Source: Escherichia phage vB_EcoM_G2540. From it: a stretch of DNA of 64,000 bases. The position numbers and the translations under genes were made by a program. Where the stretch lies: sequence record MK327936.1. One strand, given 5' to 3'. Below are positions 35,570-64,000 of this stretch, piece by piece. Under the pieces are notes generated by a model. That model searched no databases. It saw only the letters and a program-made list of their open reading frames with translations, and was not told the origin of the DNA. Each line of letters opens with the position of its first letter. Within the stretch, counting starts at the first letter, position 1.

Positions 35570-35802
35570 AGTACGCCATACACCCTTTGTGCTTCAACTA
35601 ATCCATCAAAATCCAATTTGAGATGTGTTATTTGGTCACCATCACCTGGATTCACAATTACTAATACCGAACGAGGAGTTTCGGTAATAACACGAACCGA
35701 CGTTTCAGGAAATCGTTCAGAAACCTTATTTACCAATTCTTGAGCAAATAGTTTAACTTTTTCTTGGAATTCTTTAACAGTAATTGGTTTTTCGCTTAGC
35801 AT
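35566..35802 (-). CDS. Hypothetical protein (cd.2 position)
   Basis: 78 aa ORF. Confidence 0.5.
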   Translation of the reverse strand: MLSEKPITVKEFQEKVKLFAQELVNKVSERFPETSVRVITETPRSVLVIVNPGDGDQITHLKLDFDGLVEAQRVYGVL

Positions 35803-36323
35803 GTTGATCCTAGCTCCTTACTTTCAACATTTTTAACTAATTTGACAGAAACTAATTCAGCATCTTGGGTAATCATTACCGGACCTTCTTCATGCTCTTC
35901 AAGATATTCTAGAGCTTTCTTTTTAGCTTCTTCCTTCGTATCAGTTTGAGCATAGATATAGAACATACAACCAGTAATACCTACTACTTTCCACTTAATT
36001 TCTTTATCAGTTTTAATTTCAAATTTACTTACAGAATCATCTTTTTGAACTTCTTCGAAAAAAGAATATTCTAACATATAAGCAATTGAAAATAACGGGC
36101 TAACTTTATAGGATTCACCCATTACATCAACAGCTTTATACCAACAATCATCAATTTCACGTTTAATGCTAATAACATTTTTCGCAGGATCTATTTTTAC
36201 TTTAAATGAATTTTCCCCAATAAACTGGGCAATTCGTTTATTAGCCCCGCAAGTTTCATTAAAAATATCTTTATACCCAGTTTTAAAGCGATAAACCTTA
36301 TCTTCTTCAAACCATTCGCTCAT
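35796..36323 (-). CDS. Hypothetical protein (cd.3 position)
   Basis: 175 aa ORF. Confidence 0.5.
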   Translation of the reverse strand: MSEWFEEDKVYRFKTGYKDIFNETCGANKRIAQFIGENSFKVKIDPAKNVISIKREIDDCWYKAVDVMGESYKVSPLFSIAYMLEYSFFEEVQKDDSVSKFEIKTDKEIKWKVVGITGCMFYIYAQTDTKEEAKKKALEYLEEHEEGPVMITQDAELVSVKLVKNVESKELGSTC

Positions 36324-36863: not shown

Positions 36864-38271
<1,408 letters not shown>

Positions 38272-38275
<4 letters not shown>

Positions 38276-41321: not shown

Positions 41322-42500
41322 TTAAAAATATTTTTTAAAACTCATCATAACTTTATCATCAACGTCATTATCAATCTGTGCTACAAGATAAGATGACAGT
41401 TCTACTTCTTGTGGCGCGGATTGAACATTATCAGAATTAAGATATTCACGAATCCAAGGATATGGATGTTTAACAGGAGCATCGGTAATTGGGCATGGAA
41501 GACCGCACTGTTTCATACGAGATACAGTTAAGTAATCAATAAAGCTCCACATGCTATTTGTATTTAATCCAGGAACATCGCCATCTTTAAATAAATGAAC
41601 TGCCCAATCTTTTTCTTGGCGATTAACTTCCATGAAAATATCAACTGCTTCTTGTTCACACTCTTGAGCAATTTTAACCCATTCATCGCCATCAGTGCCA
41701 AGTTGAAGTTGACGAATAATATATTGGGTGCCTTTAAGGTGAAGCTGTTCATCGCGTGCAATGAACTTCATAATCTTGGCATTACCTTCCATGATTTCCA
41801 TGTTCTTATGGAAGTTAAAGGTACATGCGAAAGATACATAAAAACGAATAGCTTCCAATGCGTTGATTACATGCAAACAGAGGTAAAGAGATTTCATTAG
41901 CTCACGCTTCCAATATGTCTCATGCTCAATAGCATCTTCAATAACGTCTTCGTCTGCATTAATTTCTTTTTGGTATTCGATATCAGCTTTAGCGTTTTCC
42001 CAATAACGAGTTTTAATCAGAACATCATCATAATAACGTCCAATGGATTCAGCACGTTTCATAATAGCTTCATCTAATACAATTTCATCAAATACCTTCG
42101 ATGGATCAGTATAAAGATTTCGCATGATATGTGTATATGAACGGCTGTGAATAGTTTCACTAAAAGTCCACGTAGCAACCCATGTATCAAGGCTTGGGTC
42201 TGAAATTAATGACATAAGTACAGCAGACGGCGCACGACCCTGAATGCTATCCAAAAGTGATTGATACTTCAGGTTATTAGTAAAAATATTTTGCTGGTAC
42301 TGAGGAAGCTTATTAAACTGTGCAGCATCCATCATTAAGTTTACTTCTTCAGGACGCCAAAAAAATGATAAAGATTTCTCAATAAGTTCTTCAAATACTC
42401 TATGTCGTTGAATATCATATCGAGCTAAACCCAATCCAGAACCAAAAAACATCGGCTCAGTCAAAATATTAACAGGGGATGTATTAAAAACTGTACTCAT
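41322..42500 (-). CDS. nrdB: Ribonucleotide reductase beta subunit NrdB, uninterrupted (392 aa)
   Basis: Single contiguous 392 aa ORF with di-iron radical protein signature context; no intron-sized gap. Confidence 0.9.
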   Translation of the reverse strand: MSTVFNTSPVNILTEPMFFGSGLGLARYDIQRHRVFEELIEKSLSFFWRPEEVNLMMDAAQFNKLPQYQQNIFTNNLKYQSLLDSIQGRAPSAVLMSLISDPSLDTWVATWTFSETIHSRSYTHIMRNLYTDPSKVFDEIVLDEAIMKRAESIGRYYDDVLIKTRYWENAKADIEYQKEINADEDVIEDAIEHETYWKRELMKSLYLCLHVINALEAIRFYVSFACTFNFHKNMEIMEGNAKIMKFIARDEQLHLKGTQYIIRQLQLGTDGDEWVKIAQECEQEAVDIFMEVNRQEKDWAVHLFKDGDVPGLNTNSMWSFIDYLTVSRMKQCGLPCPITDAPVKHPYPWIREYLNSDNVQSAPQEVELSSYLVAQIDNDVDDKVMMSFKKYF

Positions 42501-43138
42501 TTAGAATCCTTAAATTTACATTTATCATAATGCCATCTTAAAGCATTGCCTTTATTAACTTTCTTGCCACAATGCGGACAAGGCGGATACTCTGTACCTT
42601 GCTTAGTTCTCAAAGAAATCAAATCACGGGTTTCTTTAGTATGAGGAACATCTCTTGTCGGAGAGATTGTACCATACATCGGATTAAGCACGCCGACTTT
42701 AGCAGCAGCTATATTCTTTTTAGCTTCTTCGGTTTTAGGTTTTCTCATGCGAGCTAAATGCTCTTTGGTAAATTTCCTTCCTTTAAGGGCTCTACTTATC
42801 TTTTCTCTGGTTTCCATAGAAACTTCACGTCCTATAGCAGCTTCAGATAAACGTCGTCTACCTAATTCGTACAGTTGAGAAGAAATTTTATATGAGCGAT
42901 TTTTACCAGTCAAGCACATTAAACCAAAAGCTTTCTTTAATCCTGGGGTGTCATATATTTTACATAAAAGCCAATGAGCTATAAAATGTTCTCTGGCTGT
43001 TAATTCAACTAAATTTTCCTTATCATCAGAACCTCCCATACATTTAGGGATTATATGATGTGTCTCTTTATATTCTAGTAAAGATTCCCGAGCCTGAGCT
43101 CGGGAAATTAGGTCGTTATAGATTTTTTGATAATTCAT
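42497..43138 (-). CDS. mobE: HNH homing endonuclease-like protein (MobE-like), 213 aa
   Basis: HNH motif ETHHIIPKCMGGSDDKENLVELTAREHFIAHW; C-terminal Cys/His cluster CPHCGKK...RWHYDKC; inserted between nrdA and nrdB. Confidence 0.8.
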   Translation of the reverse strand: MNYQKIYNDLISRAQARESLLEYKETHHIIPKCMGGSDDKENLVELTAREHFIAHWLLCKIYDTPGLKKAFGLMCLTGKNRSYKISSQLYELGRRRLSEAAIGREVSMETREKISRALKGRKFTKEHLARMRKPKTEEAKKNIAAAKVGVLNPMYGTISPTRDVPHTKETRDLISLRTKQGTEYPPCPHCGKKVNKGNALRWHYDKCKFKDSK

Positions 43139-45402
43139 TACAATTTACACGCTGCGCAATCATCGGCTTTTGGAGTTTCTATTTCATAATCATCAGTACC
43201 GGAACCATCACGAGTATTATGATAATAGAAATTTTTTCCGCCAAAATACCAGAAATACAAAAGGTCATCAATCATTATTGACATTGGAACCTTTCCTTTT
43301 GGAAAAATCTGCGGGTCATAGTATGTATTTGCTGAAGCTGATTGACATACCCATTTCAACATAATAGCTACCTGCGTAAGATAAGGTTTATTACCTTTCT
43401 TAGCTAATTTCCACGTATAATCATATAAGTCTATGTTATGCTCAATATTGGGCACGACTTGATTAAAGGAACCCTCTTTTGATTCTTTAACAGAGACTGG
43501 TCCACGTGGAGGCTCGATACCGTTTGTACTGTTAGAAACTTGGGAAGATGACTCACATGGCATAAGTGCTGATAATGTGCTATTACGGATGCCAAAGAGC
43601 TTAAGGTCTTCCCGCAGCGACGACCAGTCACAAACGTATTTTGGAGCTGCGATTTGGTCAATCTTTTTATTGTACCAGTCGATAGGTAATTCGCCTCGAG
43701 ACCAACGAGTGTCTGAATAATATTCGCAAGGTCCTTTTTCTTTGGCGAGCTTAATGGATGCTTTAATGAGTCCATACTGTAATCTCTCAAATAGTTCATG
43801 TGTTAAATCGTTAGCATCTTCATAAGAAGCAAAGTTACTTGCCAGCCAAGCCGCATAGTTAGTAACACCTACACCGAGGTTACGACGCTTTTTAGCTTTT
43901 TCTGCTTCAGGAACTGGATATCCTTGGTAATCCAAAAGATTATCAAGAGCACGAACTTGAACTTCTGCCAATTCATTAATTTTATCTTGGTCTTGCCAGT
44001 CAAAATTATCTAATACGAATGCAGAGAGAGTACACAATCCAATTTCAGCATCAGGACTATTCACATCATTTGTTGGAATAGCAATTTCACAGCACAAGTT
44101 ACTCTGACGAATAGGTGCCTTTTCACGAATAAACGGAGTGTAGTTATTCGTATTATCAATGAACTGCACATAAATCCTTGCTGTTCCTGAACGTTCAGTC
44201 ATGAGCAATTCAAATAGTTCACGGGCTTTAATACGCTTTTTACGAATATTAGGGTCTTTTTCTGCTGCTTCGTATAATTCACGGAAACGGTCTTGGTCTT
44301 TAAAATAAGAATAATAAAGCTCGCCACCCATTTCATGCGGACTGAACAAAGTAATGTAATCGTTCTTTCCAAAACGTTCCATCATTAGGTCATTCAGTTG
44401 AACACCATAATCCATATGACGAATGCGGTTTTCTTCTACGCCTTTGTTATTTTTCAAAACGAGAAGATTTTCAACTTCCAAATGCCAAATAGGATAATAA
44501 GCAGTAGCAGCGCCGCCACGAATTCCACCCTGTGAACATGATTTAACTGCAGTCTGAAAATGTTTCCAAAAAGGAATAACACCAGTATGGCGTACTTCAC
44601 CCATGCCAATCTTAGAACCTTCAGCACGAATCATACCAACGTTAATACCAATTCCAGCGCGTTTAGAGATATATTCAACAATTGAAGCGGAAGCCTTATT
44701 GATAGACTTCAATGAATCTCCTGCCTCAATAACAACACATGAACTAAACTGTCGAGTCGGAGTACGGCAACCAGCCATAATAGGAGTTGGCAATGAAATC
44801 TGTCGAGTAGATACTGCTTCATAAAAACGGATAACATGTTTTAATCTATCAACAGGTTCATCTTGATGCAATGCCATTCCAATAGCCATAAATGCAAACT
44901 GTGGAGTTTCATAAATTTGACCAGTGGTTTTATCTTTAACTAGATATTTTTCTTTTAATTGCATCGCCCCGGAATAAGTAAATTCCATATCCCGTTCGTG
45001 CTTAATTTTTGATTCTAAAAATGTAATTTCTTCTGCTGAATATTTTGACAATAATTCAGGGTCATATTTACCTTCATTTACGCAGTAAGAAATATGGTCA
45101 ATAAATGAACGTGGTTCATACTGCCCATAAACATGCTTACGAAGAGCAAACATTAAACAGCGGGCAGCTACATATTGGTAATCAGGCTCTTCAACCGAAA
45201 TAGAATTCGCAGCAGCCTTAATGACAATAGTCTGAATATCATCAGTTGTCATTCCATCACGGAGATAAGATTTAATGTTTTCATATAATTCATAAGGATC
45301 TACTGATGTTCCTTCAGCTGCCCAAGATAAAACTTTAATAATTTTTTGTGGGTCAAAGCTCTGAGAAACACCACTACTTTTGATAACATTAATTAATTGC
45401 AT
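43138..45402 (-). CDS. nrdA: Ribonucleotide reductase alpha subunit NrdA (754 aa)
   Basis: 754 aa; N-terminus [21 protein letters not shown] and C-terminal redox Cys pair ...DDCAACKL. Confidence 0.95.
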   Translation of the reverse strand: MQLINVIKSSGVSQSFDPQKIIKVLSWAAEGTSVDPYELYENIKSYLRDGMTTDDIQTIVIKAAANSISVEEPDYQYVAARCLMFALRKHVYGQYEPRSFIDHISYCVNEGKYDPELLSKYSAEEITFLESKIKHERDMEFTYSGAMQLKEKYLVKDKTTGQIYETPQFAFMAIGMALHQDEPVDRLKHVIRFYEAVSTRQISLPTPIMAGCRTPTRQFSSCVVIEAGDSLKSINKASASIVEYISKRAGIGINVGMIRAEGSKIGMGEVRHTGVIPFWKHFQTAVKSCSQGGIRGGAATAYYPIWHLEVENLLVLKNNKGVEENRIRHMDYGVQLNDLMMERFGKNDYITLFSPHEMGGELYYSYFKDQDRFRELYEAAEKDPNIRKKRIKARELFELLMTERSGTARIYVQFIDNTNNYTPFIREKAPIRQSNLCCEIAIPTNDVNSPDAEIGLCTLSAFVLDNFDWQDQDKINELAEVQVRALDNLLDYQGYPVPEAEKAKKRRNLGVGVTNYAAWLASNFASYEDANDLTHELFERLQYGLIKASIKLAKEKGPCEYYSDTRWSRGELPIDWYNKKIDQIAAPKYVCDWSSLREDLKLFGIRNSTLSALMPCESSSQVSNSTNGIEPPRGPVSVKESKEGSFNQVVPNIEHNIDLYDYTWKLAKKGNKPYLTQVAIMLKWVCQSASANTYYDPQIFPKGKVPMSIMIDDLLYFWYFGGKNFYYHNTRDGSGTDDYEIETPKADDCAACKL

Positions 45403-45719
45403 AAGTCCTCAACTTGAAAATCGTCTTTAAACAATCGGTTAACTATATGAGCTATTATATCACCATGACACGGCTTTGGTTTACATGTGCATCCTAGCCT
45501 CATTCCACGTAAAGGCTCTAAATGTGCTTTAGTTATTTCTCCGGATTTAATTCGACGTATAAAATCTTTTTTGAATAATTCAATGGCAGCCTCCCGGCTG
45601 CCAGCATCTTTACCGACGTAATTTCCCCAAAATGTACCGCGGTGAATATTAACATCAAAGTCGGATTTGTATTTATTCACTACCCGGCATAGACGGCCCG
45701 GTTGGTAATAATTCTTCAT
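45393..45719 (-). CDS. Hypothetical protein with Cys/His cluster (nrdA.1 position)
   Basis: 108 aa; motif [12 protein letters not shown]. Confidence 0.5.
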
Positions 45720-45948
45720 ATTGTTTTTCCGTTAAAACAGTAATATCGTAGTAACAGTCAGAAGAAGTTTTAACTGTGGAAATTTTATTATCAAAATACT
45801 CACGAGTCATTTTATGAGTATAATATTTTTTGCCATAAATGATAATAGGCTGATTTGGTCCTGGAACTTCTAACTCGCTTGGGTTAGGAAGTGTAAAAAG
45901 AACAACGTCAGAAGTATCTTTAAATCGTAAAATCATAAATCCTCGCAA
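45673..45948 (-). CDS. Hypothetical protein (nrdA.2 position)
   Basis: 91 aa ORF overlapping the previous by 47 nt. Confidence 0.4.
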
Positions 45949-45956
45949 TAATAAAA

Positions 45957-46268
45957 TTATACCGCCATCTTTCCTTTAATTGGCGGGTGAGATACATAGT
46001 CGTTAAGAACAAAATTATGCGGCTTTGCGAATTGACTCAACCAAAATACCTGTGATTCTGTGTCCCATTCATCAAATTCATCTGGGAATTTTAATTGTAA
46101 TTCGCATAAATCCATAGGTTCACGACGCAAAATTTCTTTACATTGTTCTACGTGATTCATATAGATATGAGTATTACCGCCAGAAAATATCAAATCTCCC
46201 GGAATAAGATTACATATCTTAGCTACAATATGAACTAACGTAGCATATGATGCAATATTAAACGGTAG
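45957..46268 (-). CDS. td: Thymidylate synthase, exon 2 (C-terminal 103 aa)
   Basis: Reading [17 protein letters not shown]... continues the thymidylate synthase sequence; the ATG just upstream is the intron 3' end (terminal G). Confidence 0.9.
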
Positions 46269-47284
46269 CATTATGTTCAGATAAGGTCGTTAATCTTACC
46301 CCGGAATTATATCCAGCTACATGTCACCATGCAGAGCAGACTATATCTCCAACTTGTTAAAGCAAGTTGTCTATCGTTTCGAGTCACTTGACCCTACTCC
46401 CCAAAGGGATAGTCGTTAGGCATTTATGTAGAACCAATTCCATTTATCAGATTTTACACGATAAGTAACTAATCCAGACGAAATTTTAAAATGTCTAGCT
46501 GCATCTGCTGCACATTCAAAAATAACCCCATCACATGAAATCTTTTTAATATTACTAGGCTTTTTACCTTTCATCTTTTCTGATATTTTAGATTTAGTTA
46601 TGTCTGAATGCTTATGATTAAAGAATGAATTATTTTCACCTGAACGATTTCTGCATTTACTACAAGTATAAGCAGAAGTTTGTATGCGAACACCGCACTT
46701 ACAAAACTTATGGGTTTCTGGATTCCAACGCCCATTTTTACTTCCGGGTTTACTGTAAAGAGCTTTCCGACCATCAGGTCCAAGTTTAAGCATCTTAGCT
46801 TTAACAGTTTCAGAACGTTTCTTAATAATTTCTTCTTTTAATGGATGCGTAGAACATGTATCACCAAACGTTGCATCAGCAATATTGTATCCATTAATTT
46901 TAGAATTAAGCTCTTTAATCCAAAAATTTTCTCGTTCAATAATCAAATCTTTCTCATATGGAATTTCTTCCAAAATAGAACATTCAAACACATTACCATG
47001 TTTGTTAAAAGACCTCTGAAGTTTTATAGAAGAATGGCATCCTTTTTCTAAATCTTTAAAATGCCTCTTCCATCTCTTTTCAAAATCTTTAGCACTTCCT
47101 ACATATACTTTATTGTTTAAAGTATTTTTAATCTGATAAATTCCGCTTTTCATAAATACCTCTTTGAATATAGAAGTATTTATTAAAGGGCAGTCCTACA
47201 ATTTAGCACGGGATTGTCTACTAGAGAGTTTCCCCGTTTAGATAGATTACAAGTATAAGTCACCTTATACTCAGGCCTCAATTA
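46269..47284 (-). mobile_element. Self-splicing group I intron in td (1016 nt) carrying the I-TevI ORF
   Basis: Exon 1 ends ...TTGGGT at 47285, followed on the coding strand by TAATTGAGGCCTGAGTATAAGGTGACTTATACTTG; intron ends ...AATG before exon 2; length 1016 nt. Confidence 0.9.
46416..47153 (-). CDS. GIY-YIG homing endonuclease I-TevI (245 aa), intron-encoded
   Basis: 245 aa; N-terminal GIY-YIG (SGIYQIKNTLNNKVYVGSA), zinc finger CKCG...CSKC, C-terminal HTH DNA-binding region; matches recalled I-TevI. Confidence 0.92.
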   Translation of the reverse strand: MKSGIYQIKNTLNNKVYVGSAKDFEKRWKRHFKDLEKGCHSSIKLQRSFNKHGNVFECSILEEIPYEKDLIIERENFWIKELNSKINGYNIADATFGDTCSTHPLKEEIIKKRSETVKAKMLKLGPDGRKALYSKPGSKNGRWNPETHKFCKCGVRIQTSAYTCSKCRNRSGENNSFFNHKHSDITKSKISEKMKGKKPSNIKKISCDGVIFECAADAARHFKISSGLVTYRVKSDKWNWFYINA

Positions 47285-47833
47285 ACCCAAGAAAACATCT
47301 ACCGAACGTTGATACCACTGAAGGTCAAGGTATCCATTACGAACATTAAATTGATAGAACATATGACAAGGAGGTAATGCCATATATTTAAGTTCAGCTG
47401 GATTCCATGCTGAAACAATTTGACGCCTATCATTTGGCAGTTTTTTAATACGATCAATAACTTCTATAATTTGGTCTACACCACCAAAATCACGCCACTG
47501 TTTTCCATAAATTGGACCAAGTTCACCGCTATGGTATCCTAAATCTTTTGCTTGATTTTCGTAATTTTCATCCCAAACTGTTTTGCCTTGGATTAACGAA
47601 TCATGTTGAATTAATCGCAAATCATTGACATTTGTGCTTCCCGATAAAAACCATAGAAGCTCAGCAATACATGCATTCCACGCAAGCTTCTTAGTTGTTA
47701 CCGCAGGAAAACCTTTAGTTAAATCCCAGCGTAATTTAGTACCGAACAAAGCAATTGTTCCTGTGCCTGTTCGGTCATCGGTTTCATAGCCATTTTCAAA
47801 AATGTCTTTAATTAAATCTTGGTATTGTTTCAT
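47285..47833 (-). CDS. td: Thymidylate synthase, exon 1 (N-terminal 183 aa)
   Basis: MKQYQDLIKDIFENGYETDDRTGTGT... with active-site context ALPPCHMFYQF; ends ...SVDVFLG at the 5' splice site. Confidence 0.92.
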
Positions 47834-47877
47834 TTAGTACCTTATATAAATTATAATACATTTTATGAAGCTAATAA

Positions 47878-48225
47878 TCAATACGGTTTAGCATCAAATT
47901 TTCTTTCAATTTCAGGCGTAAAATACAATTCTTTACCACGCTTGGAAAAGCGACCAATAATATGATAATTATTCTCATCAAACGTGATATTGCCGATATC
48001 CATAGCTTTCAACCAAATATCGATATTTCTGTCAAGCTTTATATCAAAATTCCAATACGGAGAACTATTACCGAAAATACTGCAAGCGGATTCAGTGAAA
48101 CAACTGCTATAAATTTTGTCTTTAGGAACTACTAATTGATAGACGCCTTTAATAAACTGAGGACCCTGCCATTTTGGTTGTTTCGCGTCTTTTTCTAATA
48201 GAATAGGGTAATAATTAAAATTCAT
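47878..48225 (-). CDS. Hypothetical protein between frd and td
   Basis: 115 aa ORF. Confidence 0.5.
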   Translation of the reverse strand: MNFNYYPILLEKDAKQPKWQGPQFIKGVYQLVVPKDKIYSSCFTESACSIFGNSSPYWNFDIKLDRNIDIWLKAMDIGNITFDENNYHIIGRFSKRGKELYFTPEIERKFDAKPY

Positions 48226-48244: not shown

Positions 48245-49074
<830 letters not shown>

Positions 49075-49085: not shown

Positions 49086-49418
49086 TTAAAAAGGATCAGG
49101 AACATATCCACTAGCTTTAATCATTTTAACTAATGTTACCATTCCTTTGTTAACTGCTTGTGAGATTTCATCAAAAACTTCATCATTAAAAAGTTCTAGC
49201 ACACCCTTCTGAACTTTTAATTTACAGCCAACAATTTCGTCATCGCCTATAGTAAATTCATTACCGCCAATTCCACCGAAAAACTTAATTACACCAGTTA
49301 ACTGTCTTCCACGAGAATATGGGTCATGTGATAAAGTAATATGAGTCACCCCAGGTACAGTTTTAAATTGACAGCGAATGTTTACTTGAGAAATTCCAGT
49401 TACATGAATGTCAGACAT
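49086..49418 (-). CDS. Hypothetical protein (frd.2 position)
   Basis: 110 aa ORF. Confidence 0.5.
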   Translation of the reverse strand: MSDIHVTGISQVNIRCQFKTVPGVTHITLSHDPYSRGRQLTGVIKFFGGIGGNEFTIGDDEIVGCKLKVQKGVLELFNDEVFDEISQAVNKGMVTLVKMIKASGYVPDPF

Positions 49419-54381: not shown

Positions 54382-57300
54382 ATGGCCGAGATTAAAAGAA
54401 AGTTCAGAGCAGAAGATGGTCTGGACGCAGGTGGCGATAAAATAATCAACGTAGCTTTAGCTGACCGTACCGTAGGAACTGACGGTGTTAACGTTGATTA
54501 CTTAATTCAAGAAAACACAGTTCAGCAATATGATCCAACTCGTGGATATTTAAAAGATTTTGTAATCATTTATAATAATCGTTTTTGGGCAGCAACGGAT
54601 AATATTCCAAAACCTGCTGGAAATTTTAATAGAATTCGTTGGAAAGCATTACGTACTGATGCCGTATATACAACCGTATCATCTGGACCATATCAATTAA
54701 AATCCGGAGAAGCAATTTCAGTAGATACATCAGTTGGCAATGACATTGAGTTTACTTTACCACCTTCTCCGCTTGATGGAGAAACCGTAATAATTCAAGA
54801 TATCGGTGGAAAACCTGGCATAAATCAGGTTAAAATAAATTCTTCAAATCAGAGTATTGTCAATTTTAGAGGTGAACAGGTACGTTCAGTTTTAATGACT
54901 CATCCAAAGTCACAGATGATATTCATTTTTAATAATCGTTTGTGGCAAATGTATGTTGCTGATTATAGCAGAGAAGCTGCGATTGTTACTCCATCGACTG
55001 CGTATCAAGCACAATCTAATGATTTTATCGTACGTAGATTTACTTCTGCTGCACCAATTAATGTTAAACTTCCGAGATTTGCTAATCATGGCGATATTAT
55101 TAATTTCGTTGATTTAGATAAACTGAATCCACTTTATCATACAATTGTTACTACATACGATGAAACGACTTCAGTACAAGAAGTTGGAACTCATTCCATT
55201 GAAGGCCGTACATCGATTGACGGTTTCTTGATGTTTGACGATAATGAGAAATTGTGGAGATTGTTTGACGGGGATAGTAAAGCACGTTTACGCATTATAA
55301 CAACTAATTCAAATATTCGTCCAAATGAAGAAGTCATGGTATTTGGCGCGAATAATGGAACAACCCAAACAATTGAACTTCAGCTTCCGACTGATATTTC
55401 TGTTGGTGATACTGTTAAAATTTCCATGAATTACATGAGAAAAGGACAAACAGTTAAAATCAAAGCTGCTGGTGAAGATAAAATTGCTTCTTCAGTTCAA
55501 TTGCTGCAATTCCCAAAACGTTCAGAATATCCGCCTGAAGCTGAATGGGTAACAGTTCAAGAATTAGTTTTTAATGGTGAAACTAATTATGTACCAGTTT
55601 TGCAACTTGCTTATATAGAAGATTCTGATGGAAAATACTGGGTTGTACAGCAAAACGTTCCAACAGTTGAAAGAGTCGATTCTTTAAATAATTCTACTAG
55701 AGCAAGATTAGGCGTAATTGCTTTAGCTACACAAGCTCAAGCAAATGCTGATTTAGAAAATTCTCCACAAAAAGAATTAGCAATTACTCCAGAAACGTTA
55801 GCTAATCGTACTGCTACTGAAACTCGCAGAGGTATTGCAAGAATAGCAACTACTGCTCAAGTAAATCAGAACACCACATTCTCTTTTGCAGATGACCTTA
55901 TCATCACTCCTAAAAAGCTGAATGAAAGAACTGCTACAGAAACTCGTAGAGGTGTTGCTGAAATTGCTACGCAGCAGGAAACTAATACAGGTATCGATGA
56001 TACTACAATCATCACTCCTAAAAAGCTTCAAGCTCGTCAAGGTTCTGAAACATTATCGGGTATTGTAACTTTTGTATCTACTGCAGGAGCTACTCCAGCT
56101 TCTAGTCGTGAATTAAATGGTACAAATGTTTATAATAAAAACACTAATAATTTAGTTGTTTCACCTAAAGCTTTGGATCAGTATAAAGCTACTCCAACGC
56201 AACAAGGCGCAGTAATTTTAGCAGTTGAAAGTGAAGTAATTGCTGGACAAAGCCAAGAAGGATGGGCAAATGCGGTTGTAACACCAGAAACGTTACATAA
56301 AAAGACATCAACTGATGGAAGAATTGGTTTAATTGAAATTGCTACGCAAAGCGAAGTTAATACAGGAACTGATTATACTCGCGCAGTCACTCCTAAAACT
56401 TTAAATGACCGTAGAGCAACTGAAAGTTTAAGTGGTATAGCTGAAATTGCTACGCAAGTTGAATTCGACGCAGGCGTCGACGATACTCGTATCTCTACAC
56501 CATTAAAAATTAAAACCAGATTTAATAGTACTGATCGTACTTCTGTTGTTGCTCTATCTGGATTAGTTGAATCAGGAACTCTCTGGGACCATTATACCCT
56601 TAATATTCTTGAAGCAAATGAGACACAGCGTGGTACACTTCGTGTAGCTACACAAGTTGAAGCTGCTGCAGGAACATTGGATAATGTTCTAATAACTCCT
56701 AAAAAGCTTTTAGGTACTAAATCTACTGAAGCACAGGAAGGCGTTATTAAAGTTGCAACTCGGTCTGAAACTGTAGCTGGAACGTCAGCAAATACTGCTG
56801 TATCTCCAAAAAATTTAAAATGGATTGTGCAGAGTGAACCTACTTGGGCAGCGACTACTGCGATAAGAGGTTTTGTTAAAACTTCGTCTGGTTCAATTAC
56901 ATTCGTTGGTAATGATACAGCTGGTTCAACACAGCCATTAGAATCATATGAGAAAAATGGTTATGCAGTATCACCATATGAATTAAATCGCGTATTAGCA
57001 AATTATTTGCCATTAAAAGCAAAAGCCGTAGATAGTAATTTATTAGATGGTCTAGATTCGCTCCAGTTCATTCGTAGGGACATTGCACAAACAGTTAATG
57101 GTTCACTAACCTTAACCCAACAAACGAATCTGAGTGCCCCTCTTGTATCATCTAGTACTGCTACATTCGGTGGATCAGTTTCAGCAAATAGTACATTAAC
57201 TATTTCTAATACTGGAACGGCAACTCGTCTGATTTTTGAGAAAGGACCTCAAACTGGAACAAACCCGGCTCAAACGATGACAGTCAGAGTGTGGGGAAAT

Positions 57301-58251
57301 CAATTTAGCGGGGAATCAGACACAACACGTTCTACCGTATTTGAAGTTAGTGATGAAACGTCTAGTCATTTTTATTCTCAGCGTAATAAAGCTGGAAATA
57401 TAACATTTAATATCAACGGTACAGTAACACCGATAAATGTTAATGCTTCAGGAACATTGAATGCAAATGGTGTAGCAACATTTGGTAATTCAGTCACTGC
57501 AACTGGTGAAATTATTTCTCGAAGCGCAAATGCTTTCCGTGCTATTAACGGAAATTATGGTTTCATTGTTCGCAATGATGGATCAGTAACGAATTTTATG
57601 CTTACTGCATCGGGTGATCAGACTGGTGGATTTAATGGATTACGTCCAGTATCAATTAATAATCAATCTGGTCAGGTTACAATTGGTGAAAGCTTAATCA
57701 TTGCAAAAGGTGCTACTATAAGTTCAGGCGGTTTAACTGTTAACTCGAGAATTCGTTCTCAAGGTACTAAAACTTCTGATTTATACACTCGCGCACCAAC
57801 ATCTGATACAGTAGGATTCTGGTCAATTGATATTAATGATTCAGCCACTTATAATCAATTCCCTGGTTATTTTAAAATGGTTGAAAAAACTAATGAAGTG
57901 ACTGGTCTTCCATATTTAGAACGTGGCGAAGAAGTTAAATCTCCTGGTACATTGACTCAGTTTGGTAACACACTTGATTCACTTTACCAAGATTGGATTA
58001 CTTATCCAACGACCCCAGAAGCACGTACCACTCGCTGGACACGTACATGGCAGAAAACCAAAAACTCTTGGTCAAGTTTTGTTCAGGTATTTGACGGAGG
58101 TAACCCTCCTCAACCTTCAGATATAGGAGCGATCCCATCTGATAATGGAATAATAGGTAATCTTACTATTCGCGATTTCTTGCGAATTGGTAATGTTCGC
58201 ATTATTCCTGACCCAGTGAATAAAACTGTTAAATTTGAGTGGATTGAATAA
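54382..58251 (+). CDS. 34: Long tail fibre proximal subunit gp34 (1289 aa)
   Basis: 1289 aa as T4 gp34; internal repeated motif TATETRRG(I/V)A(E/R)IAT; late promoter at 54340-54347. Confidence 0.95.
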   Translation: MAEIKRKFRAEDGLDAGGDKIINVALADRTVGTDGVNVDYLIQENTVQQYDPTRGYLKDFVIIYNNRFWAATDNIPKPAGNFNRIRWKALRTDAVYTTVSSGPYQLKSGEAISVDTSVGNDIEFTLPPSPLDGETVIIQDIGGKPGINQVKINSSNQSIVNFRGEQVRSVLMTHPKSQMIFIFNNRLWQMYVADYSREAAIVTPSTAYQAQSNDFIVRRFTSAAPINVKLPRFANHGDIINFVDLDKLNPLYHTIVTTYDETTSVQEVGTHSIEGRTSIDGFLMFDDNEKLWRLFDGDSKARLRIITTNSNIRPNEEVMVFGANNGTTQTIELQLPTDISVGDTVKISMNYMRKGQTVKIKAAGEDKIASSVQLLQFPKRSEYPPEAEWVTVQELVFNGETNYVPVLQLAYIEDSDGKYWVVQQNVPTVERVDSLNNSTRARLGVIALATQAQANADLENSPQKELAITPETLANRTATETRRGIARIATTAQVNQNTTFSFADDLIITPKKLNERTATETRRGVAEIATQQETNTGIDDTTIITPKKLQARQGSETLSGIVTFVSTAGATPASSRELNGTNVYNKNTNNLVVSPKALDQYKATPTQQGAVILAVESEVIAGQSQEGWANAVVTPETLHKKTSTDGRIGLIEIATQSEVNTGTDYTRAVTPKTLNDRRATESLSGIAEIATQVEFDAGVDDTRISTPLKIKTRFNSTDRTSVVALSGLVESGTLWDHYTLNILEANETQRGTLRVATQVEAAAGTLDNVLITPKKLLGTKSTEAQEGVIKVATRSETVAGTSANTAVSPKNLKWIVQSEPTWAATTAIRGFVKTSSGSITFVGNDTAGSTQPLESYEKNGYAVSPYELNRVLANYLPLKAKAVDSNLLDGLDSLQFIRRDIAQTVNGSLTLTQQTNLSAPLVSSSTATFGGSVSANSTLTISNTGTATRLIFEKGPQTGTNPAQTMTVRVWGNQFSGESDTTRSTVFEVSDETSSHFYSQRNKAGNITFNINGTVTPINVNASGTLNANGVATFGNSVTATGEIISRSANAFRAINGNYGFIVRNDGSVTNFMLTASGDQTGGFNGLRPVSINNQSGQVTIGESLIIAKGATISSGGLTVNSRIRSQGTKTSDLYTRAPTSDTVGFWSIDINDSATYNQFPGYFKMVEKTNEVTGLPYLERGEEVKSPGTLTQFGNTLDSLYQDWITYPTTPEARTTRWTRTWQKTKNSWSSFVQVFDGGNPPQPSDIGAIPSDNGIIGNLTIRDFLRIGNVRIIPDPVNKTVKFEWIE

Positions 58252-58259: not shown

Positions 58260-59375
58260 ATGGAAAAATTTATGGCAGAGTTTGGACAAGGATATGTCCA
58301 AACGCCATTTTTATCGGAAAGCAATTCAGTAAGATATAAAATAAGCATAGCGGGTTCTTGCCCGCTTTCTACTGCGGGGCCATATGTTAAATTTCAGGAT
58401 AATCCCGTTGGAAATCAAACATTTAGTGCAGGTCTTCATTTAAGAGTTTTTGACCCTTCTACGGGAGCATTAGTTGATAGCAAGTCATATGCTTTTTCTG
58501 CTTCAAACAATACAACATCTGCCGCTTTTGTTAGTTTCATGAATTCTTTGTCAAACAATAGACTTGTTGCTATATTAACTAGCGGAAAGGTTAATTTTCC
58601 TCCTGAAGTGGTATCTTGGTTAAGGGGAGCAGGAACTTCAGTTTTTCCATCAGATTCAGTATTGTCAAGATTTGACGTATCATATGCTGCTTTTTATACT
58701 TCTTCTAAAAGAGCTATTGCATTAGAGCATGTTAAACTAAGTAATAGAAAAAGCACAGATGATTATCAAACTATTTTAGATGTTGTATTTGATAGTTTAG
58801 AAGACGTCGGAGCGACAGGATTTCCAAAAAGAACTTATGAAAGTGTCGAGCAATTCATGTCAGCAGTTGGTGGAACTAATAACGAAATTGCGCGATTGCC
58901 AACTTCAGCTGCTATAAGTAAACTTTCTGACTATAATTTAATTCCTGGTGATGTTCTTTATCTTAAAGCACAGTTATATGCTGATGCTGATTTACTTGAT
59001 CTTGGAACTACAAACATATCCATTCGTTTTTATGATGCATCAAATGGATATATTTCCTCGACCCAAGCTGAGTTTACTGGGCAAGCTGGGTCTTGGGAAT
59101 TAAAAGAAGACTATGTAGTTGTTCCAGAAAACGCCGTAGGATTTACGATATATGCACAAAGAACTGCTCAAGCAGGTCAAGGCGGCATGAGAAATTTAAG
59201 TTTTTCTGAAGTATCAAGAAATGGCGGCATTTCAAAACCTGCCGAATTTGGCGTCAACGGTATTCGCGTTAATTATGTCTGTGAATCGGCTTCACCTCCA
59301 GATATAATGGTACTTCCTACACAAGCCTCTTCTAAAACTGGCAAAGTGTTTGGACAGGAATTTAGAGAAGTTTAA
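58260..59375 (+). CDS. 35: Long tail fibre hinge (knee) protein gp35 (371 aa)
   Basis: 371 aa, N-terminus MEKFMAEFGQGYVQTPFLSESNSVRYK as T4 gp35. Confidence 0.9.
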   Translation: MEKFMAEFGQGYVQTPFLSESNSVRYKISIAGSCPLSTAGPYVKFQDNPVGNQTFSAGLHLRVFDPSTGALVDSKSYAFSASNNTTSAAFVSFMNSLSNNRLVAILTSGKVNFPPEVVSWLRGAGTSVFPSDSVLSRFDVSYAAFYTSSKRAIALEHVKLSNRKSTDDYQTILDVVFDSLEDVGATGFPKRTYESVEQFMSAVGGTNNEIARLPTSAAISKLSDYNLIPGDVLYLKAQLYADADLLDLGTTNISIRFYDASNGYISSTQAEFTGQAGSWELKEDYVVVPENAVGFTIYAQRTAQAGQGGMRNLSFSEVSRNGGISKPAEFGVNGIRVNYVCESASPPDIMVLPTQASSKTGKVFGQEFREV

Positions 59376-59380
59376 ACTGA

Positions 59381-59398
59381 GGGAGCCTTCGGGTTCCC
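59381..59398 (+). terminator. Stem-loop after gene 35
   Basis: GGGAGCC-TTCG-GGTTCCC followed by TTTTTCTTT. Confidence 0.6.
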
Positions 59399-59437
59399 TT
59401 TTTCTTTATAAATAATATTAAAATAAAGGGGCATATA

Positions 59438-60088
59438 ATGGCTGATTTAAAAGTAGGTTCAACTGTAGGTGGATCTGTCATTTGGCATCAAGGAAATTTT
59501 CCATTGAATTCAGCCGGTGACGATGTACTCTACAAATCATTTAAAATATATTCAGAATATAATAAACCGCAGGCAGCTGATAACGATTTCGTTTCTAAAG
59601 CTAATGGTGGTACTTACACCGGTCCAATTACTATTAATTACGGGGTAAATAGTTATCTTCAATTAAGTAATAATGAAACCCCCATCCGAATTCGTTCTGG
59701 TGGCGGCACTGGTAATACTCTTGTAGTTGGTGGCTCTTCTGGCGGTATTAGTTTTAGACCAGCAGGTAGTGAAATCACTACTGGACAAATTACTATTACG
59801 CCAGAAGGTTTGACAACATTTACCAAAGCTGTAACGGCTCCATCTGTAACTGTTACATCTACTCCTTCCGCAGCATCTGATGTTACTCGCAAAGATTATG
59901 TTGATGGAGCAATAAATACTGTTACAGCAAATGCAAACTCTAGGGTATTACGCTCTGGAGACACTATGACAGGAAATTTAACTGCGCCAAACCTTTTTTC
60001 ACAGAATCCTGCATCTCAACCTTCACACGTTCCACGATTTGACCAAATCGTAATTAAGGATTCTGTTCAAGATTTCGGCTATTATTAA
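59438..60088 (+). CDS. 36: Long tail fibre distal connector gp36 (216 aa)
   Basis: 216 aa; late promoter TATAAATA at 59407-59414. Confidence 0.9.
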
Positions 60089-60096
60089 GAGGACTT

Positions 60097-63045
60097 ATGG
60101 CTACTTTAAAACAAATACAATTTAAAAGAAGCAAAACTGCAGGTCAACGTCCTGCTGCTTCAGTATTAGCCGAAGGTGAATTGGCTATAAACTTAAAAGA
60201 TAAAACAATTTTCACAAAAGATGACTCAGGCAGTGTTATAGAATTAGGTTTAAAATATGGAGGAACAATTGATGGTTCTTTAACTGTTAATGGAAATATA
60301 ATTGGAAATTTAACAGGTAACGCTGCAACTGCAACGAAATTAAAAACAGCACGAAAAATTAATGGTATATCCTTTGATGGGTCAAAAGATATCACGCTAA
60401 CTCCATCTGACATAAATGTCAATAGCACAACGTTTATAAAAAATAATGGCGAATTACCTGTTGATGCTAATTTAGATACGTATGGGCCTGTTGAAGAATA
60501 TCTTGGAGTTTGGTCGAAAGCAACTTCAACCAACGCTCAACCAGCAAATAAATTTCCAGAAGAAAATGCTGTAGGTGTGCTAGAAGTATTTGTGGCCGGT
60601 CAATTTGCTGGTACTCAGAGATATACAACTAGATACGGAAATGTTTATATTCGTTCCTTGACTGCTACATGGAACGGAGTAAATGGTCCGTGGAGTGTGT
60701 GGCGAAATATTCAATCCGGTACTCGTCCACTGTCAACAACAATTGATCTTAATGATCTAGGAGGCGCTGAACACTTTGGTTTGTGGCGAAATAGTTCAAA
60801 TTCCATTGCTACCTTTGACAGAAATTTCCCAGAAGAGGGGTCGTCAGCTCAAGGTCTTTTGGAAGTATATGAAGGTGGAAACTATTCTCGTACACAAAGA
60901 TATACAACCAGATTTGGTGTTGTATATACTCGTTGTCTTGCTGCCGCGTGGGATGCTTCCGCGCCTAAATGGGGACCGTGGCAACAAGTCGGTAATGTCA
61001 CACCAGCGACTTTCTATGACGGAGATCTGAATGATTTTAAAACCCCTGGGTTATATAATATTTTAGGCACTGATGCCGTTATTAACTGTCCTACAGGTGA
61101 AGGTTTGCCGACTGTTATTGTTGGTTTGCTGGAAGTTAAACAACGTGCTTCTGGCGGTGCTATTTTCCAAAAATTTACTACTGCCGGAACGGGTGCAACT
61201 ACTCGCGATCGTATTTTTGAGCGTGCATATACTGGTGGTGTGTGGGGTGCATGGAACGAAGTATATACATCTTACTCTCTGCCAATTACTTTAGGTATGG
61301 GTGGTATTAAAACTCAATTAGCGGAGCTAGATTGGCAAACATTTGATTTTGTTCCTGGTAGTATGTTTAGCGTTCCTTTGAACAAAATAAAGAACATGCC
61401 AGCTAATATGAATTGGGGCACGATTGACGGAAACTTAATTATGTTTTCTGTTGGTCCTAGCGAGCACACCAGCACAGGACGTACTGTTCAGGTTTGGCGT
61501 GGAACTGTATCCCAGACAAACTATCGTTATTTTGTCGTTCGTGTGTTCGGTAATTCTGGAAATAGAACTTGCACAGTTCGCCGTGTTGTTCTTGAAGATG
61601 GATCACATACTTGGACTGCTCAACAAAACTTTAGGGGATTGTTGAATATCACTGCTGCTGTTAATCTTGGTGCTAATCAGAAAATTTCACTTGCTCCAGG
61701 AGCATATATTCAAGCCCCTGCTAGCGGTTCTGGTTCTAATACTTACGCGAATCAGAATACTACCATTGCACCATTATATCAGGCCATTGACGATTCAAAT
61801 AAAAACCAGTTTGCGCCAATTGTTAAACAGAAAAACACTGTAACAAATATTACTATGGCTTCTGGTATGGATATTGCTAGTTCAGAATATCGTATCGTTG
61901 CTCAGGGTGATTTATCCGCTACTGGAACTACAGCCACTAAATTAGCTACATGGCGTTTCTTGCCGTCTGGCCGATTCATGTCACAAAGCCGAGTTTATGC
62001 TGGCGCAGCATTCTTGAACACTGATGGTAACATTGCTGGTTCAATCTGGAAGAAATACAACGATGCAACCAATTTAGATGCTGCCTTGAATACTCGCCTA
62101 GGTAAAGGCGGTGATACGATGACAGGTCGGTTAACAATCAATGCACCTAATGATTCTATCGTATTATCAACAACTGCTAGTAATTCTTTGCATATTCGCG
62201 GTGACATAGACGGGACTGGTAACTGGTATATTGGCAAGGGTGGTGCTGATAATTCGCTAGCATTTTATAGCTATGCTACTCAGGCGGCAGTACATATCAC
62301 AAACAATGGTGAGATTTCGCTAAATCCACAAAATATCGCAATGGTTAACGTTAACCGCGATCGTGTACACATTAACGGTTCTGGATGGATTGCTAGACAA
62401 CCGGGTGATTGGGGCAACCAATGGCGAGTAGAAGCTCCATTATTCGTCGATCATGGTTATGTTTCACAGGATTGTTATTATCCAATTATTAAAGGAAGAA
62501 GTGTAATCACCAATCAAGGGTTTGTAACTGCCGTCGATCTTGGTATTCGTCGTGTCCCTAACAATTGGGGGCAAGCAATTATTCGTGTTGGATCTGCAGA
62601 GGCATCGCCAGCGGCTGAACACCCTAACGCGGTATTTGAATTTCATTACGACGGTACTTTCTATTCTCCTGGTAATGGTAACTTTAACGATGTGTATATT
62701 CGTTCCGATGGTCGTCTTAAGATTAATAAAAAAGAGCTAGAAAACGGAGCACTTGAAAAAGTATGTCGACTGAAAGTTTATATTTACGATAAAGTTAAGT
62801 CTATTAAAGACCGTAGTGTTATTAAACGTGAAGTTGGTATTATTGCTCAGGACCTTGAAAAGGAATTACCGGAAGCTGTATCTAAAGTTGAAGTTGATGG
62901 ATCTGATGTTCTGACAATTTCTAACTCTGCTGTGAATGCTCTTTTAATTAAGGCTATTCAGGAAATGAGTGAAGAAATTAAAGAATTGAAAACGCCTCTC
63001 TTTACTAAAATTGCTCGCAAAATTAGTAAATATTTTAAATTCTAA
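60097..63045 (+). CDS. 37: Long tail fibre distal subunit gp37 (982 aa), T2-type with C-terminal chaperone-like domain
   Basis: N-terminus [35 protein letters not shown] conserved; C-terminal ~120 aa coiled-coil segment typical of cleaved intramolecular chaperone domains. Confidence 0.9.
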
Positions 63046-63051
63046 CAACAA

Positions 63052-63066
63052 GGGGGAAATGCCCCC
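63052..63066 (+). terminator. Stem-loop after gene 37
   Basis: GGGGG-AAATG-CCCCC followed by TTTGG. Confidence 0.5.
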
Positions 63067-63081
63067 TTTGGAGTATAAATT

Positions 63082-63861
63082 ATGGCAGTAGTTGGTGTTC
63101 CTGGTTGGATTGGAAGTTCAGCCGCAAATGAAACAGGACAGCGCTGGATGAGTCAAGCGGCTGGTCAATTAAGATTGGGTGTTCCTTGCTGGATGAGTCA
63201 ATTTGCAGGTCGCTCACGAGAAATTATTCACACGCTTGGAGCAGACCATAACTTCAATGGTCAATGGTTCCGAGATAGATGTTTTGAGGCAGGTAGTGCA
63301 CCTATAGTGTTTAATATCACCGGAAATTTAGTATCATATAGTAAAGATGTTCCTTTATTCTTTATGTACGGCGATACGCCAAATGAATATGTTACTTTGA
63401 ATATTCATGGTGGAGTTCATATGTGGGGACGAGGTGGTAACGGTACTGTAAACGGAAACCCAGGCACAAATGGCGGCGATGTAATCCAAAATGATATCGG
63501 CGGAAGACTTCGTATTTGGAACTATGGCGTTATTGCATCAGGCGGTGGCGGTGGCGGTGCAGTGTCATTACAGAATAGCTGGGCGCCAAATGCTACAGCA
63601 GGTGGCGGCGGTGGTAGACCATTTGGCATCGGCGGTGGCGGCGTTAATTGGCCAGGTGGTAATGCTAGTTATGACGCGCCTGGTGGTGCCGGTTACACTT
63701 CCCAATTCGGCGGTGGTAATGGTGGCGATGCTGGGGGTCGGGGCGGAGATGGATGGGGTAATCACTTATCTAGATCTGGCGGTGGTGCTCCTGGCAGAGC
63801 AGTATTCGGAAGTTCACCGTCATGGGGTGCTACAGGCACAATCTACGGCTCCTGGATTTAA
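63082..63861 (+). CDS. 38: Receptor-recognising tail fibre tip adhesin gp38, T2-type (259 aa) with glycine-rich motifs
   Basis: 259 aa; Gly runs ([37 protein letters not shown]) separated by variable segments; much longer than the 183-aa T4-type gp38 chaperone. Confidence 0.85.
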
Positions 63862-63907
63862 ACGATAATACCCTCTCAATTATAAATATTGATAAATGGG
63901 AGGTAAT

Positions 63908-64000
63908 ATGGCAGCACCAAAAGTATCATTTTCGCCTAGTGATATTTTATTTGGGTTGCTAGACCGCATTTTCAAAGATAACGCCTCTGGAAATATTCTT
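63908..64000 (+). CDS. t: Holin T, N-terminal fragment (continues past window end)
   Basis: MAAPKVSFSPSDILFGLLDRIFKDNASGNIL resembles T4 holin N-terminus; late promoter at 63881-63888. Confidence 0.8.
   Translation, partial: MAAPKVSFSPSDILFGLLDRIFKDNASGNIL

Follow-up and report, generated by a model that had tools for sequence, protein, structure and literature searches.

We analysed a 64-kb window (64,000 nucleotides, one strand) of the Escherichia phage vB_EcoM_G2540 genome (MK327936.1), in which the distal long tail fibre genes are arranged in the order g34-g35-g36-g37-g38-t, with g38 located directly 3' of g37 and 5' of t (Table 1). Over 56.2 kb the window aligns collinearly with T4 (mean identity 94.7%), confirming the T4-like remainder reported in the preliminary description, and the backbone is 95-97.6% identical to other Tequatroviruses. 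The comparison with T4 proposed there for locating the recombination junctions placed the end of the T4 DNA match at position 60251, inside g37 (~codon 52); the collinear backbone (~95% up to that codon), the late promoters and the gene order are common to both phages. The order g36-g37-g38-t is also that of T2 and T6, in which gp38 is the tip adhesin. Our sequence comparisons indicate that the locus is very probably an ordinary Tequatrovirus module for the distal long tail fibre and belongs to the adhesin-bearing type (T2/T6/S16).

Table 1. Features of the g36-g37-g38-t region in the 64-kb window (aa, amino acids).
Feature	Position	Strand	Basis or remark
Hairpin, terminator-like site	59379..59400	+	Just 3' of the g35 stop; stem of nine pairs, then a T run
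T4-type late promoter motif TATAAATA, 5' of g36	59407..59414	+	Exact motif
g36, distal hinge connector, 216 aa	59438..60088	+	Pfam Phage_T4_gp36; PHROG 1425
g37, long tail fibre distal subunit, 982 aa	60097..63045	+	PHROG 1699, E 4e-205
Conserved g37 5' end, ~codons 1-52	60097..60251	+	Limit of DNA homology to T4, T2 and RB69
Two tandem ~75-aa repeats, gp37 shaft	60496..60990	+	Residues 134-205 and 225-298; 41% identity, E 2e-19
g37 patch, 460 nt, 21 mismatches to G2540-3	60684..61143	+	100% identical to JB75, JK23 and Paracelsus (Bas36)
DVYIR, predicted final strand in mature gp37 and predicted gp38 docking face	62689..62703	+	gp37 residues 865-869; motif; aligns with the S16 cleavage site
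gp37 intramolecular chaperone domain, 113 aa	62704..63045	+	Residues 870-982; Pfam Peptidase_S74 and S16 gp37 homology
Left breakpoint interval against G2540-3	62932..63095	+	g37 3' end, spacer and first g38 codons
g38, putative receptor-recognising adhesin, 259 aa	63082..63861	+	Pfam GP38 and Gp38_N; PDB homologues
gp38 N-terminal attachment domain, W9/W22/W37	63082..63207	+	Residues 1-42; Gp38_N match
gp38 specificity domain	63403..63858	+	Residues 108-259; Gly-rich motifs alternating with variable segments
Codon CAA, gp38 Q208, equivalent of RB51 Q206 (OmpF/OmpW switch position)	63703..63705	+	Codon read
Late promoter motif TATAAATA, 5' of t	63881..63888	+	Motif; annotated at the equivalent fPS-2 site
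Holin gene t, 5' end, RB69/Mosigvirus allele type	63908..64000, runs off the window	+	ATG and reading frame; identity

The first of the two late promoter motifs is probably the start of a g36-g37-g38 late transcript. The existing records of vB_EcoM_G2540-3 (MK327944; hereafter G2540-3) and fPS-2 carry a terminator annotation at the equivalent place after g35, and a late promoter annotation stands at the equivalent site before g36 in fPS-2 as well as in fPS-90.

The family of gp38 is settled, since its sequence is homologous to two gp38 proteins of solved structure, the PP01 gp38 receptor-binding domain (PDB 9V85, E 3.3e-73) and S16 gp38 (PDB 6F45_D, E 2.2e-47, residues 5-259). Pfam GP38 (PF05268) covers residues 47-259 (E 3.8e-83, 279 bits, cut-off 25), and Gp38_N (PF21721) covers residues 1-42 (E 7e-20, 71 bits, cut-off 25), with a further match to PHROG 2056 ("tail fiber protein; host specificity"; E 7e-110). 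Gly makes up 25% of the protein, 35% of residues 108-259 and 11% of residues 1-107, with runs of six (154-159), five (174-178), four (184-187) and three (210-212 and 233-235) residues separated by non-Gly segments, a pattern that is not due to chance. The gp38 glycine codons account for the G+C of 0.49-0.51 over 63250-64000, compared with 0.35-0.42 upstream. In an alignment with T2, T6 and G2540-3 the Gly motifs proved conserved, with variable segments between them (at ~121-130, 160-173, 188-209 and 223-232, limits read by eye from the alignment). The Pfam, PHROG and Gly-run results agree with the earlier reading of a 259-aa T2/T6-like adhesin with poly-Gly motifs and variable segments. By homology gp38 would adopt a polyglycine-II sandwich fold; the single-sequence AlphaFold2 model has a pLDDT of 30.9, too low for the model to be usable. 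In the attachment domain, W9, W22 and W37 line up with the three Trp residues of S16 gp38, which have a role in gp38 docking onto the gp37 trimer in the S16 structure (PMC6851490).

Residues 1-66 of gp37 are 79% identical to T4 gp37, and its shaft shows weak similarity to the T4 protein (28% over residues 485-648). T6 gp37 is the closer relative (90% over residues 1-524 and 81% over residues 677-982), and T2 gp37 (1341 aa) matches at its two ends only. The tandem shaft repeats were visible only by pairwise segment comparison, while the whole-gp37 BLASTP self-comparison gave the diagonal only; a suspected third repeat was unsupported (E 0.079). PHROG 4618 spans residues 106-325, which include the repeat region. 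A Pfam scan of the shaft (residues 100-868), allowing E values as high as 5, returned gp37_trimer alone (residues 693-744) and no family on the repeats. An exact-sequence look-up in the assemblies index found neither the gp37 nor the gp38 sequence on record.

The C-terminal region of gp37 was assigned as an intramolecular chaperone because of the Pfam Peptidase_S74 hit (PF13884, "chaperone of endosialidase"; residues 870-928, E 5e-11, 43 bits, cut-off 22) and the homology of residues 863-968 to S16 gp37 (6F45_A), in line with the 982-aa protein with a terminal chaperone that had been proposed. Single-sequence AlphaFold2 modelling of the last 143 residues placed helices at 943-960 and 967-978, but its pLDDT of only 48.7 is too low to confirm the coiled coil suggested in the preliminary description. 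Residues 865-876 (DVYIR↓SDGRLKI) align with DLNVS↓SDRRIKK of S16, Ser opening the released domain, suggesting autocleavage at the R869-S870 bond. For the fPS phages, a cut after DVYIR had already been predicted (Salem 2021, PMC7917993), and the DVYIR↓SDGRLKI motif is common to fPS-2, fPS-90 and the phage analysed here.

We detected a close relationship to G2540-3 throughout g34-g37. The g34-g36 DNA is 100% identical in the two phages, and their gp37 proteins have the same length (982 aa) and differ at three residues (V201A, F227L, A945T). There are zero mismatches over 59438-60683 and over 61144-62928, flanking the 460-nt patch shared with JB75, JK23 and Paracelsus. By these comparisons, g34-g37 are of the G2540-3 type, with a T6-like gp37. 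Two mismatches follow at 62929 and 62931, and mismatches resume at 63096, rising to ~50% after ~63400; by this alignment, the whole of g38 is replaced relative to G2540-3. A junction inside g38 at ~codon 108, where the protein identity to G2540-3 collapses, was considered and rejected, since the mismatch map places the start of the divergence at 63096, at the g38 start. G2540-3 is like the present phage in g34-g37 and unlike it in the gp38 specificity domain (T6-like there, 47%) and in the t start.

The sequence following g38 (63862-64000) shares 99.3% identity with RB69 and 28 further records and only 73-78% with T2, T4, T6, G2540-3 (~76%), fPS-2 and EO1. The tract resembling Mosigvirus runs into t and past the window end, and its right junction lies beyond the window. 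The gp38 attachment domain is 100% identical to that of fPS-2 and 78.5% identical to that of RB69, in which it is two residues shorter than here. RB69 also differs in gp37 (1103 aa), whose shaft is unrelated and whose tip and chaperone are divergent. The gp38 of EO1 differs from the present one at one residue over the whole protein and that of fPS-2 by I183L and one ambiguous residue; fPS-2 gp37 has another shaft (1018 aa). The fPS-90 gp38 shows 95.8% identity, and the fPS-90 gp37 resembles the present one outside the middle third. In fPS-2, as in fPS-90, the t gene is the usual Tequatrovirus allele, unlike here.

These relationships probably reflect an origin of all of g38 and the t start from another lineage, closest to Mosigvirus phages (Bas46, RB69). 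The attachment domain is still of a type that would fit the resident gp37 tip, while the specificity domain is the RB69/RB51 allele; the receptor specificity has therefore probably been exchanged. The exchange would have occurred by homologous recombination in the conserved flanking sequence, a mechanism long described for T-even phages. Possibly, the g38-to-t tract (~63096 to beyond 64000) was imported into a Tequatrovirus from a Mosigvirus lineage, bringing the specificity domain along with the 5' end of the holin gene, with the attachment domain kept. Such an import would mean recombination between genera with different DNA hypermodification, and if the g38-t linkage recurs, host range would be passed on with the control of lysis as a single module.

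Because each comparison reads the same from either side, the breakpoint at 62932-63095 shows only that one of the two lineages changed. The arrangement found here could possibly be the ancestral one, with no recent exchange of g37-g38-t, G2540-3 (with JB75 and Paracelsus) having acquired a different, T6-like g38. This g38 class is also present in other Tequatroviruses (fPS-2, EO1, FL33 and RB51), and an RB69-like t start is also present in Bas38, both consistent with an ancestral state. The records sharing the t start at 99.3% are, however, mostly Mosigvirus, and most of the Tequatroviruses compared stand at 73-78%. An RB69-type t start in a Tequatrovirus backbone therefore favours import into the present lineage, short of proof. 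The locus is also a clean example of a known rule, in which recombination in conserved sequence on the flanks of the gp38 specificity domain re-assorts the host range and the attachment domain stays matched to gp37.

The receptor class was assigned by aligning gp38 with T2 and T6, as had been proposed, and with typed relatives, and the result was the OmpF class. The specificity domain is 100% identical to those of RB69, RB51, RB68 (GenBank record), EO1 and phiC120, 98.7% identical to those of fPS-2 and Bas47 and 96.7% identical to that of FL33, compared with 53% for T2, 51% for T6 and 47% for G2540-3. The preliminary description had called the cassette T2-type, which is appropriate for the architecture and not for the alleles, as gp37 is T6-like and the specificity domain is RB69/RB51-type (100%), with T2 only 53% identical. 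The specificity domain is at least 90% identical in 72 records, and the OmpF-type allele class is discrete because very few records fall between 60% and 90%. RB69 is a Mosigvirus and RB51 a Tequatrovirus, and gp38 residues 108-259 are identical in both, including the Gln at the switch position.

RB69 and RB51 require OmpF (Trojet 2011, PMC3157838). RB51 was also typed as OmpF-dependent by RB-TnSeq, and the Q206L substitution switches it to OmpW (preprint 10.64898/2026.04.02.716166); Gln is kept at the equivalent position 208 of the present gp38. The fPS-2 and fPS-90 receptors were identified as OmpF and LPS in Y. pseudotuberculosis by resistant mutants and complementation (PMC7917993), and OmpF is used by Bas47 and by FL31, FL33 and FL34. 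We therefore predict, from the identity to typed relatives, that OmpF is most likely the receptor of gp38. The LPS core is probably also needed for infection, by analogy with the relatives. Further dependencies of the typed relatives (FhuA and the full LPS core for RB69, PMC3157838; TolC for the FL phages) may be indirect, or may arise from other proteins of the fibre. The GenBank RB68 record has Gln at 206, unlike the RB68 stock of the preprint (Leu at 206; 10.64898/2026.04.02.716166), and is thus unusable as an OmpW reference. A literature search linking ChristianSchoenbein (Bas46) with OmpF found nothing, and of Bas46 and Bas47 only the latter was used for the receptor assignment.

It is improbable that gp38 targets another outer-membrane protein (OmpW, OmpC, FadL, Tsx or OmpA) instead of OmpF. 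Single variable-loop substitutions can retarget gp38, as Q206L does in RB51 (OmpF to OmpW, 10.64898/2026.04.02.716166), but the switch residue here is still Gln and the specificity domain is 100% identical to those of the OmpF-dependent RB69 and RB51. The nearest solved structure by sequence, PP01 gp38, is OmpC-binding, but the high similarity to PP01 is found only outside the variable loops. T2, 53% identical in the specificity domain, uses FadL and OmpF, and T6 uses Tsx; a receptor of the T6 or G2540-3 type is opposed by the specificity domain identities of only 47-51%. OmpF is the primary receptor predicted from the sequence, with Q208 as a possible single-residue switch to OmpW, and the prediction is useful for phage cocktail design and for anticipating resistance by loss of ompF or ompR. 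The main value of the analysis is in correct annotation, and it raises no new biological question.

The probable working of the fibre tip was deduced from the S16 gp37-gp38 structure (PMC6851490). The gp37 protein would trimerise to form the distal half-fibre, and the intramolecular chaperone at its C-terminus (residues 870-982) would aid the folding and then cut itself off after R869. The cleavage would expose a hydrophobic tip made by the DVYIR strand, on which one gp38 monomer would dock via an N-terminal helical bundle with W9, W22 and W37. The remainder of gp38 would be a beta-helix and a polyglycine-II sandwich formed from the Gly-rich motifs, and the loops between these motifs would face away from the fibre and bind the outer-membrane protein.

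The alternative that gp38 is an assembly chaperone only, as in T4, with the gp37 C-terminus as the receptor-binding tip, has close to no chance of being correct. Several database records do annotate close gp38 homologues as "long tail fiber assembly chaperone/catalyst", but these annotations are inherited from T4 nomenclature, as a note in the RB69 record itself states. The present gp38 is not similar to T4 gp38, the best BLASTP match covering 12 residues at E 2.1, and it is homologous along its whole length to tip adhesins characterised structurally. At its C-terminus gp37 carries a Peptidase_S74 chaperone domain, to which the T4 gp37 distal tip (residues ~800-1026) gave no alignment. A best match of gp38 to the T4 chaperone, or of the gp37 C-terminus to the T4 tip, had been named at the outset as arguing against a tip adhesin, and neither was found. 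In T4 the receptor-binding tip is within gp37 and gp38 is an unrelated chaperone outside the virion, and the present proteins resemble neither.

The adhesin gp38 is closer in design to that of the S16 tip (PDB 6F45), with the same three parts expected by homology (Trp attachment domain, predicted beta-helix and predicted polyglycine sandwich) and the same C-terminal intramolecular chaperone in gp37. S16 is distant in sequence (E 2e-47), has other variable loops and targets Salmonella OmpC. Systems of this kind are already known, and what is new here is the combination of alleles. A receptor-recognition cassette in a T4-like backbone, as pointed out in the preliminary description, is indeed present, but it is not exceptional. 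Adhesin-type gp38 is the majority state also according to Trojet 2011 (PMC3157838) and Dunne/Leiman (PMC6851490), and we found it in 808 phage records, compared with 297 for T4-type gp38.

The product of gene 38 (gp38, the receptor-recognising adhesin) is covered by the Pfam families Gp38_N (PF21721, E 7e-20) over its attachment domain, residues 1-42, and GP38 (PF05268, E 3.8e-83) over residues 47-259; the PHROG matches of gp38 and of gp37, the long tail fibre distal subunit, are consistent with these assignments. It is a full-length homologue of both solved tip adhesins, the receptor-binding domain of PP01 gp38 (PDB 9V85, E 3.3e-73) and S16 gp38 (6F45_D, residues 5-259, E 2.2e-47). The N-terminal gp38 tryptophans W9, W22 and W37 align with the three tryptophans of S16 gp38; the crystal structure of the S16 tip shows the latter inserted into the gp37 trimer, in three hydrophobic pockets that are equivalent to one another (PMC6851490). 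Glycine makes up 35% of the specificity domain (residues 108-259) versus 11% of residues 1-107, with runs of six (154-159), five (174-178), four (184-187) and three (210-212 and 233-235), and the local G+C rise to ~0.5 is due to this composition. No similarity to the chaperone-type gp38 of T4 was detected (E 2.1), in agreement with the adhesin type proposed in the preliminary description.

Pfam Peptidase_S74 ('chaperone of endosialidase') was detected on gp37 residues 870-928 (E 5e-11) and gp37_trimer on residues 693-744, and the S16 gp37 C-terminus (6F45_A) aligns with residues 863-968. The motif DVYIR/SDGRLKI (residues 865-876) is the counterpart of the S16 cleavage site DLNVS/SDRRIKK, and cleavage after DVYIR was predicted for the fPS phages by Salem et al. 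(PMC7917993); a cut at this predicted site would release a 113-residue chaperone. Similarity to T4 gp37 is limited to residues 1-66 (79%) and weak shaft matches, and the T4 distal tip is unmatched; neither of the two observations that the preliminary description named as refuting it was therefore made. The gp37 allele is T6-like: T6 gp37 shows 90% identity to residues 1-524 and 81% to residues 677-982, with a divergent middle section, while matches to the longer T2 protein (1341 aa) are confined to both ends. Two tandem repeats of ~75 aa were observed in the shaft (residues 134-205 and 225-298; window 60496-60990; 41% identity, E 2e-19), inside a match to PHROG 4618 'tail collar fiber protein' and without a Pfam family; a possible third copy (residues 310-390) has the WG(A/P)W motif alone in common.

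The specificity domain is 100% identical to those of RB69, RB51, RB68 (GenBank record) and EO1, 98.7% to those of fPS-2 and Bas47 (AlbertHofmann) and 96.7% to that of FL33, but only 47% to that of phage vB_EcoM_G2540-3 (MK327944; hereafter G2540-3), 51% to T6 and 53% to T2. Across phage records, 72 share at least 90% identity with this domain, only one 80-90% and 11 60-80%, and the domain marks a discrete allele class. For residues 1-107 the identity is 100% with fPS-2, 96% with G2540-3 and 78.5% with RB69. Over the whole protein, a single residue (G5S) separates this gp38 from that of EO1, two (A15V, I183L) from that of Bas46 (ChristianSchoenbein, Mosigvirus), and I183L plus one ambiguous residue from that of fPS-2.

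OmpF is required, with FhuA and the full LPS core, by RB69 and RB51 (Trojet 2011), and was identified for RB51 by RB-TnSeq (preprint 10.64898/2026.04.02.716166), for fPS-2 and fPS-90 together with LPS by resistant mutants and complementation (PMC7917993), for Bas47 by knockout and complementation (Maffei 2021) and for FL31, FL33 and FL34 with a TolC effect (Lutz 2025). The RB51 gp38 substitution Q206L is reported to move recognition from OmpF to OmpW (preprint 10.64898/2026.04.02.716166); in the present gp38 this position is occupied by Q208, encoded by CAA at 63703-63705. Since all typed carriers of this specificity domain are OmpF-dependent and the glutamine is retained, we predict from sequence identity that gp38 belongs to the OmpF class. 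The same preprint gives leucine at position 206 as the cause of RB68 OmpW specificity; the GenBank RB68 record (KM607004.1, 201-974) encodes a gp38 identical to that of RB51, with Q206, and the laboratory stock appears to differ from this deposited record.

The window is collinear with T4 98,186-156,696, and 56.2 of its 64 kb can be aligned, with 94.7% identity on average, so the preliminary description is right that the other genes follow T4; other Tequatroviruses are nearer (95-97.6%), and the T4 match stops at 60251, ~codon 52 of g37. The cassette is nevertheless widespread: homologues of the present gp38 occur in 808 records of the phage collection versus 297 for T4 gp38. The adhesin cassette is the common state, not an intrusion, as also stated by Trojet 2011 and by Dunne and Leiman (PMC6851490). 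The observation of the preliminary description is confirmed and its adhesin-cassette interpretation supported, with these qualifications; the cassette is a known system whose database relatives are near-identical, to which the OmpF assignment, the breakpoint map and the corrected framing are added here.

The open reading frames of g37 and g38 coincide exactly with those read previously. The late-promoter and terminator sites agree with the annotation of related genomes, and g36 (distal hinge connector), g37 and g38 probably share one late transcript. The g35 product has a Pfam ILEI (interleukin-like EMT inducer domain) match at residues 58-112 (E 8e-8), barely above the curated cut-off.

Features of the tail fibre region and small ORFs of the window
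Feature	Position	Strand	Remark
g34	54382-58251		upstream of g37/g38
g35	58260-59375		upstream of g37/g38
g36	59438-60088		upstream of g37/g38
g37	60097-63045	+	982 aa
g38	63082-63861	+	259 aa
T4 late-promoter motif TATAAATA	54340		before g34
T4 late-promoter motif TATAAATA	59407		before g36
T4 late-promoter motif TATAAATA	63881		before t (holin gene)
Hairpin terminator	59379-59400		after g35
t start codon	63908		within last 139 bases of window
Small ORF without T4 nucleotide match	35796-36323	-	PHROG 3710
Small ORF without T4 nucleotide match	37955-38275	-	PHROG 2364
Small ORF without T4 nucleotide match	47878-48225	-	PHROG 1928
Small ORF without T4 nucleotide match	48829-49074	-	PHROG 3183
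Small ORF without T4 nucleotide match	49086-49418	-	PHROG 3566 and Pfam DUF7247

G2540-3 is the nearest relative, with g34-g36 DNA 100% identical and three differing gp37 residues (V201A, F227L, A945T). Mismatches to it are absent from 59438-60683 and 61144-62928, while a 460-nt patch inside g37 (60684-61143) has 21 but matches JB75, JK23 and Bas36 (Paracelsus) at 100% identity; flanked by these long mismatch-free stretches, the patch looks like a short gene-conversion tract. Single mismatches follow at 62929 and 62931, and mismatches restart at 63096, reaching ~50% beyond ~63400. This pattern places the left breakpoint within 62932-63095 (g37 3' end, spacer and first g38 codons); in protein comparison the conserved attachment domain masks it. 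The tract 63096-64000 is closest to Bas46 (96.8%) and SQ17 (96.7%). Near 63216 (~codon 45 of g38, just past the attachment domain) similarity to RB69 increases from ~60% to 90% or more, remaining at 88-100% to the window end.

The last 139 bases (63862-64000; intergenic region and first 31 t codons) share 99.3% identity with RB69 and with 28 further records, most of them Mosigvirus but one the Tequatrovirus Bas38 (AugustSocin), versus only 73-78% to T2, T4, T6, G2540-3, fPS-2 and EO1. This stretch is the RB69/Mosigvirus allele, and the exchanged tract thus extends into t, its right end lying beyond the window. No record of the phage collection carries the whole cassette (60097-63861) at high identity, the best covering 88-92%, and neither the exact gp37 nor the exact gp38 was found in the assemblies index, making this a new combination of alleles, each part of which is known. 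Reassortment via conserved flanks is textbook behaviour of this locus (Trojet 2011), and engineered swaps have been reported (preprint 10.64898/2026.04.02.716166).

Elsewhere, the window lacks two homing-endonuclease genes of T4, segD and segE, as well as its nrdB intron with I-TevIII, and the mobE region is different (8340-8400, 13455-13475, 41824-41827, 42749-42952), while the td intron (42953-47836, contiguous with T4 140231-145115) and segG appear present. The PHROG families of the five small ORFs are of unknown function. Two full-length alt paralogues were detected, one of 685 aa at 23886-25943 (-) and one of 698 aa at 25947-28043 (-). Each has a match to the ADP-ribosyltransferase family ADPrib_exo_Tox; T4 has a single alt gene and the remnants alt.-1 and alt.-2.
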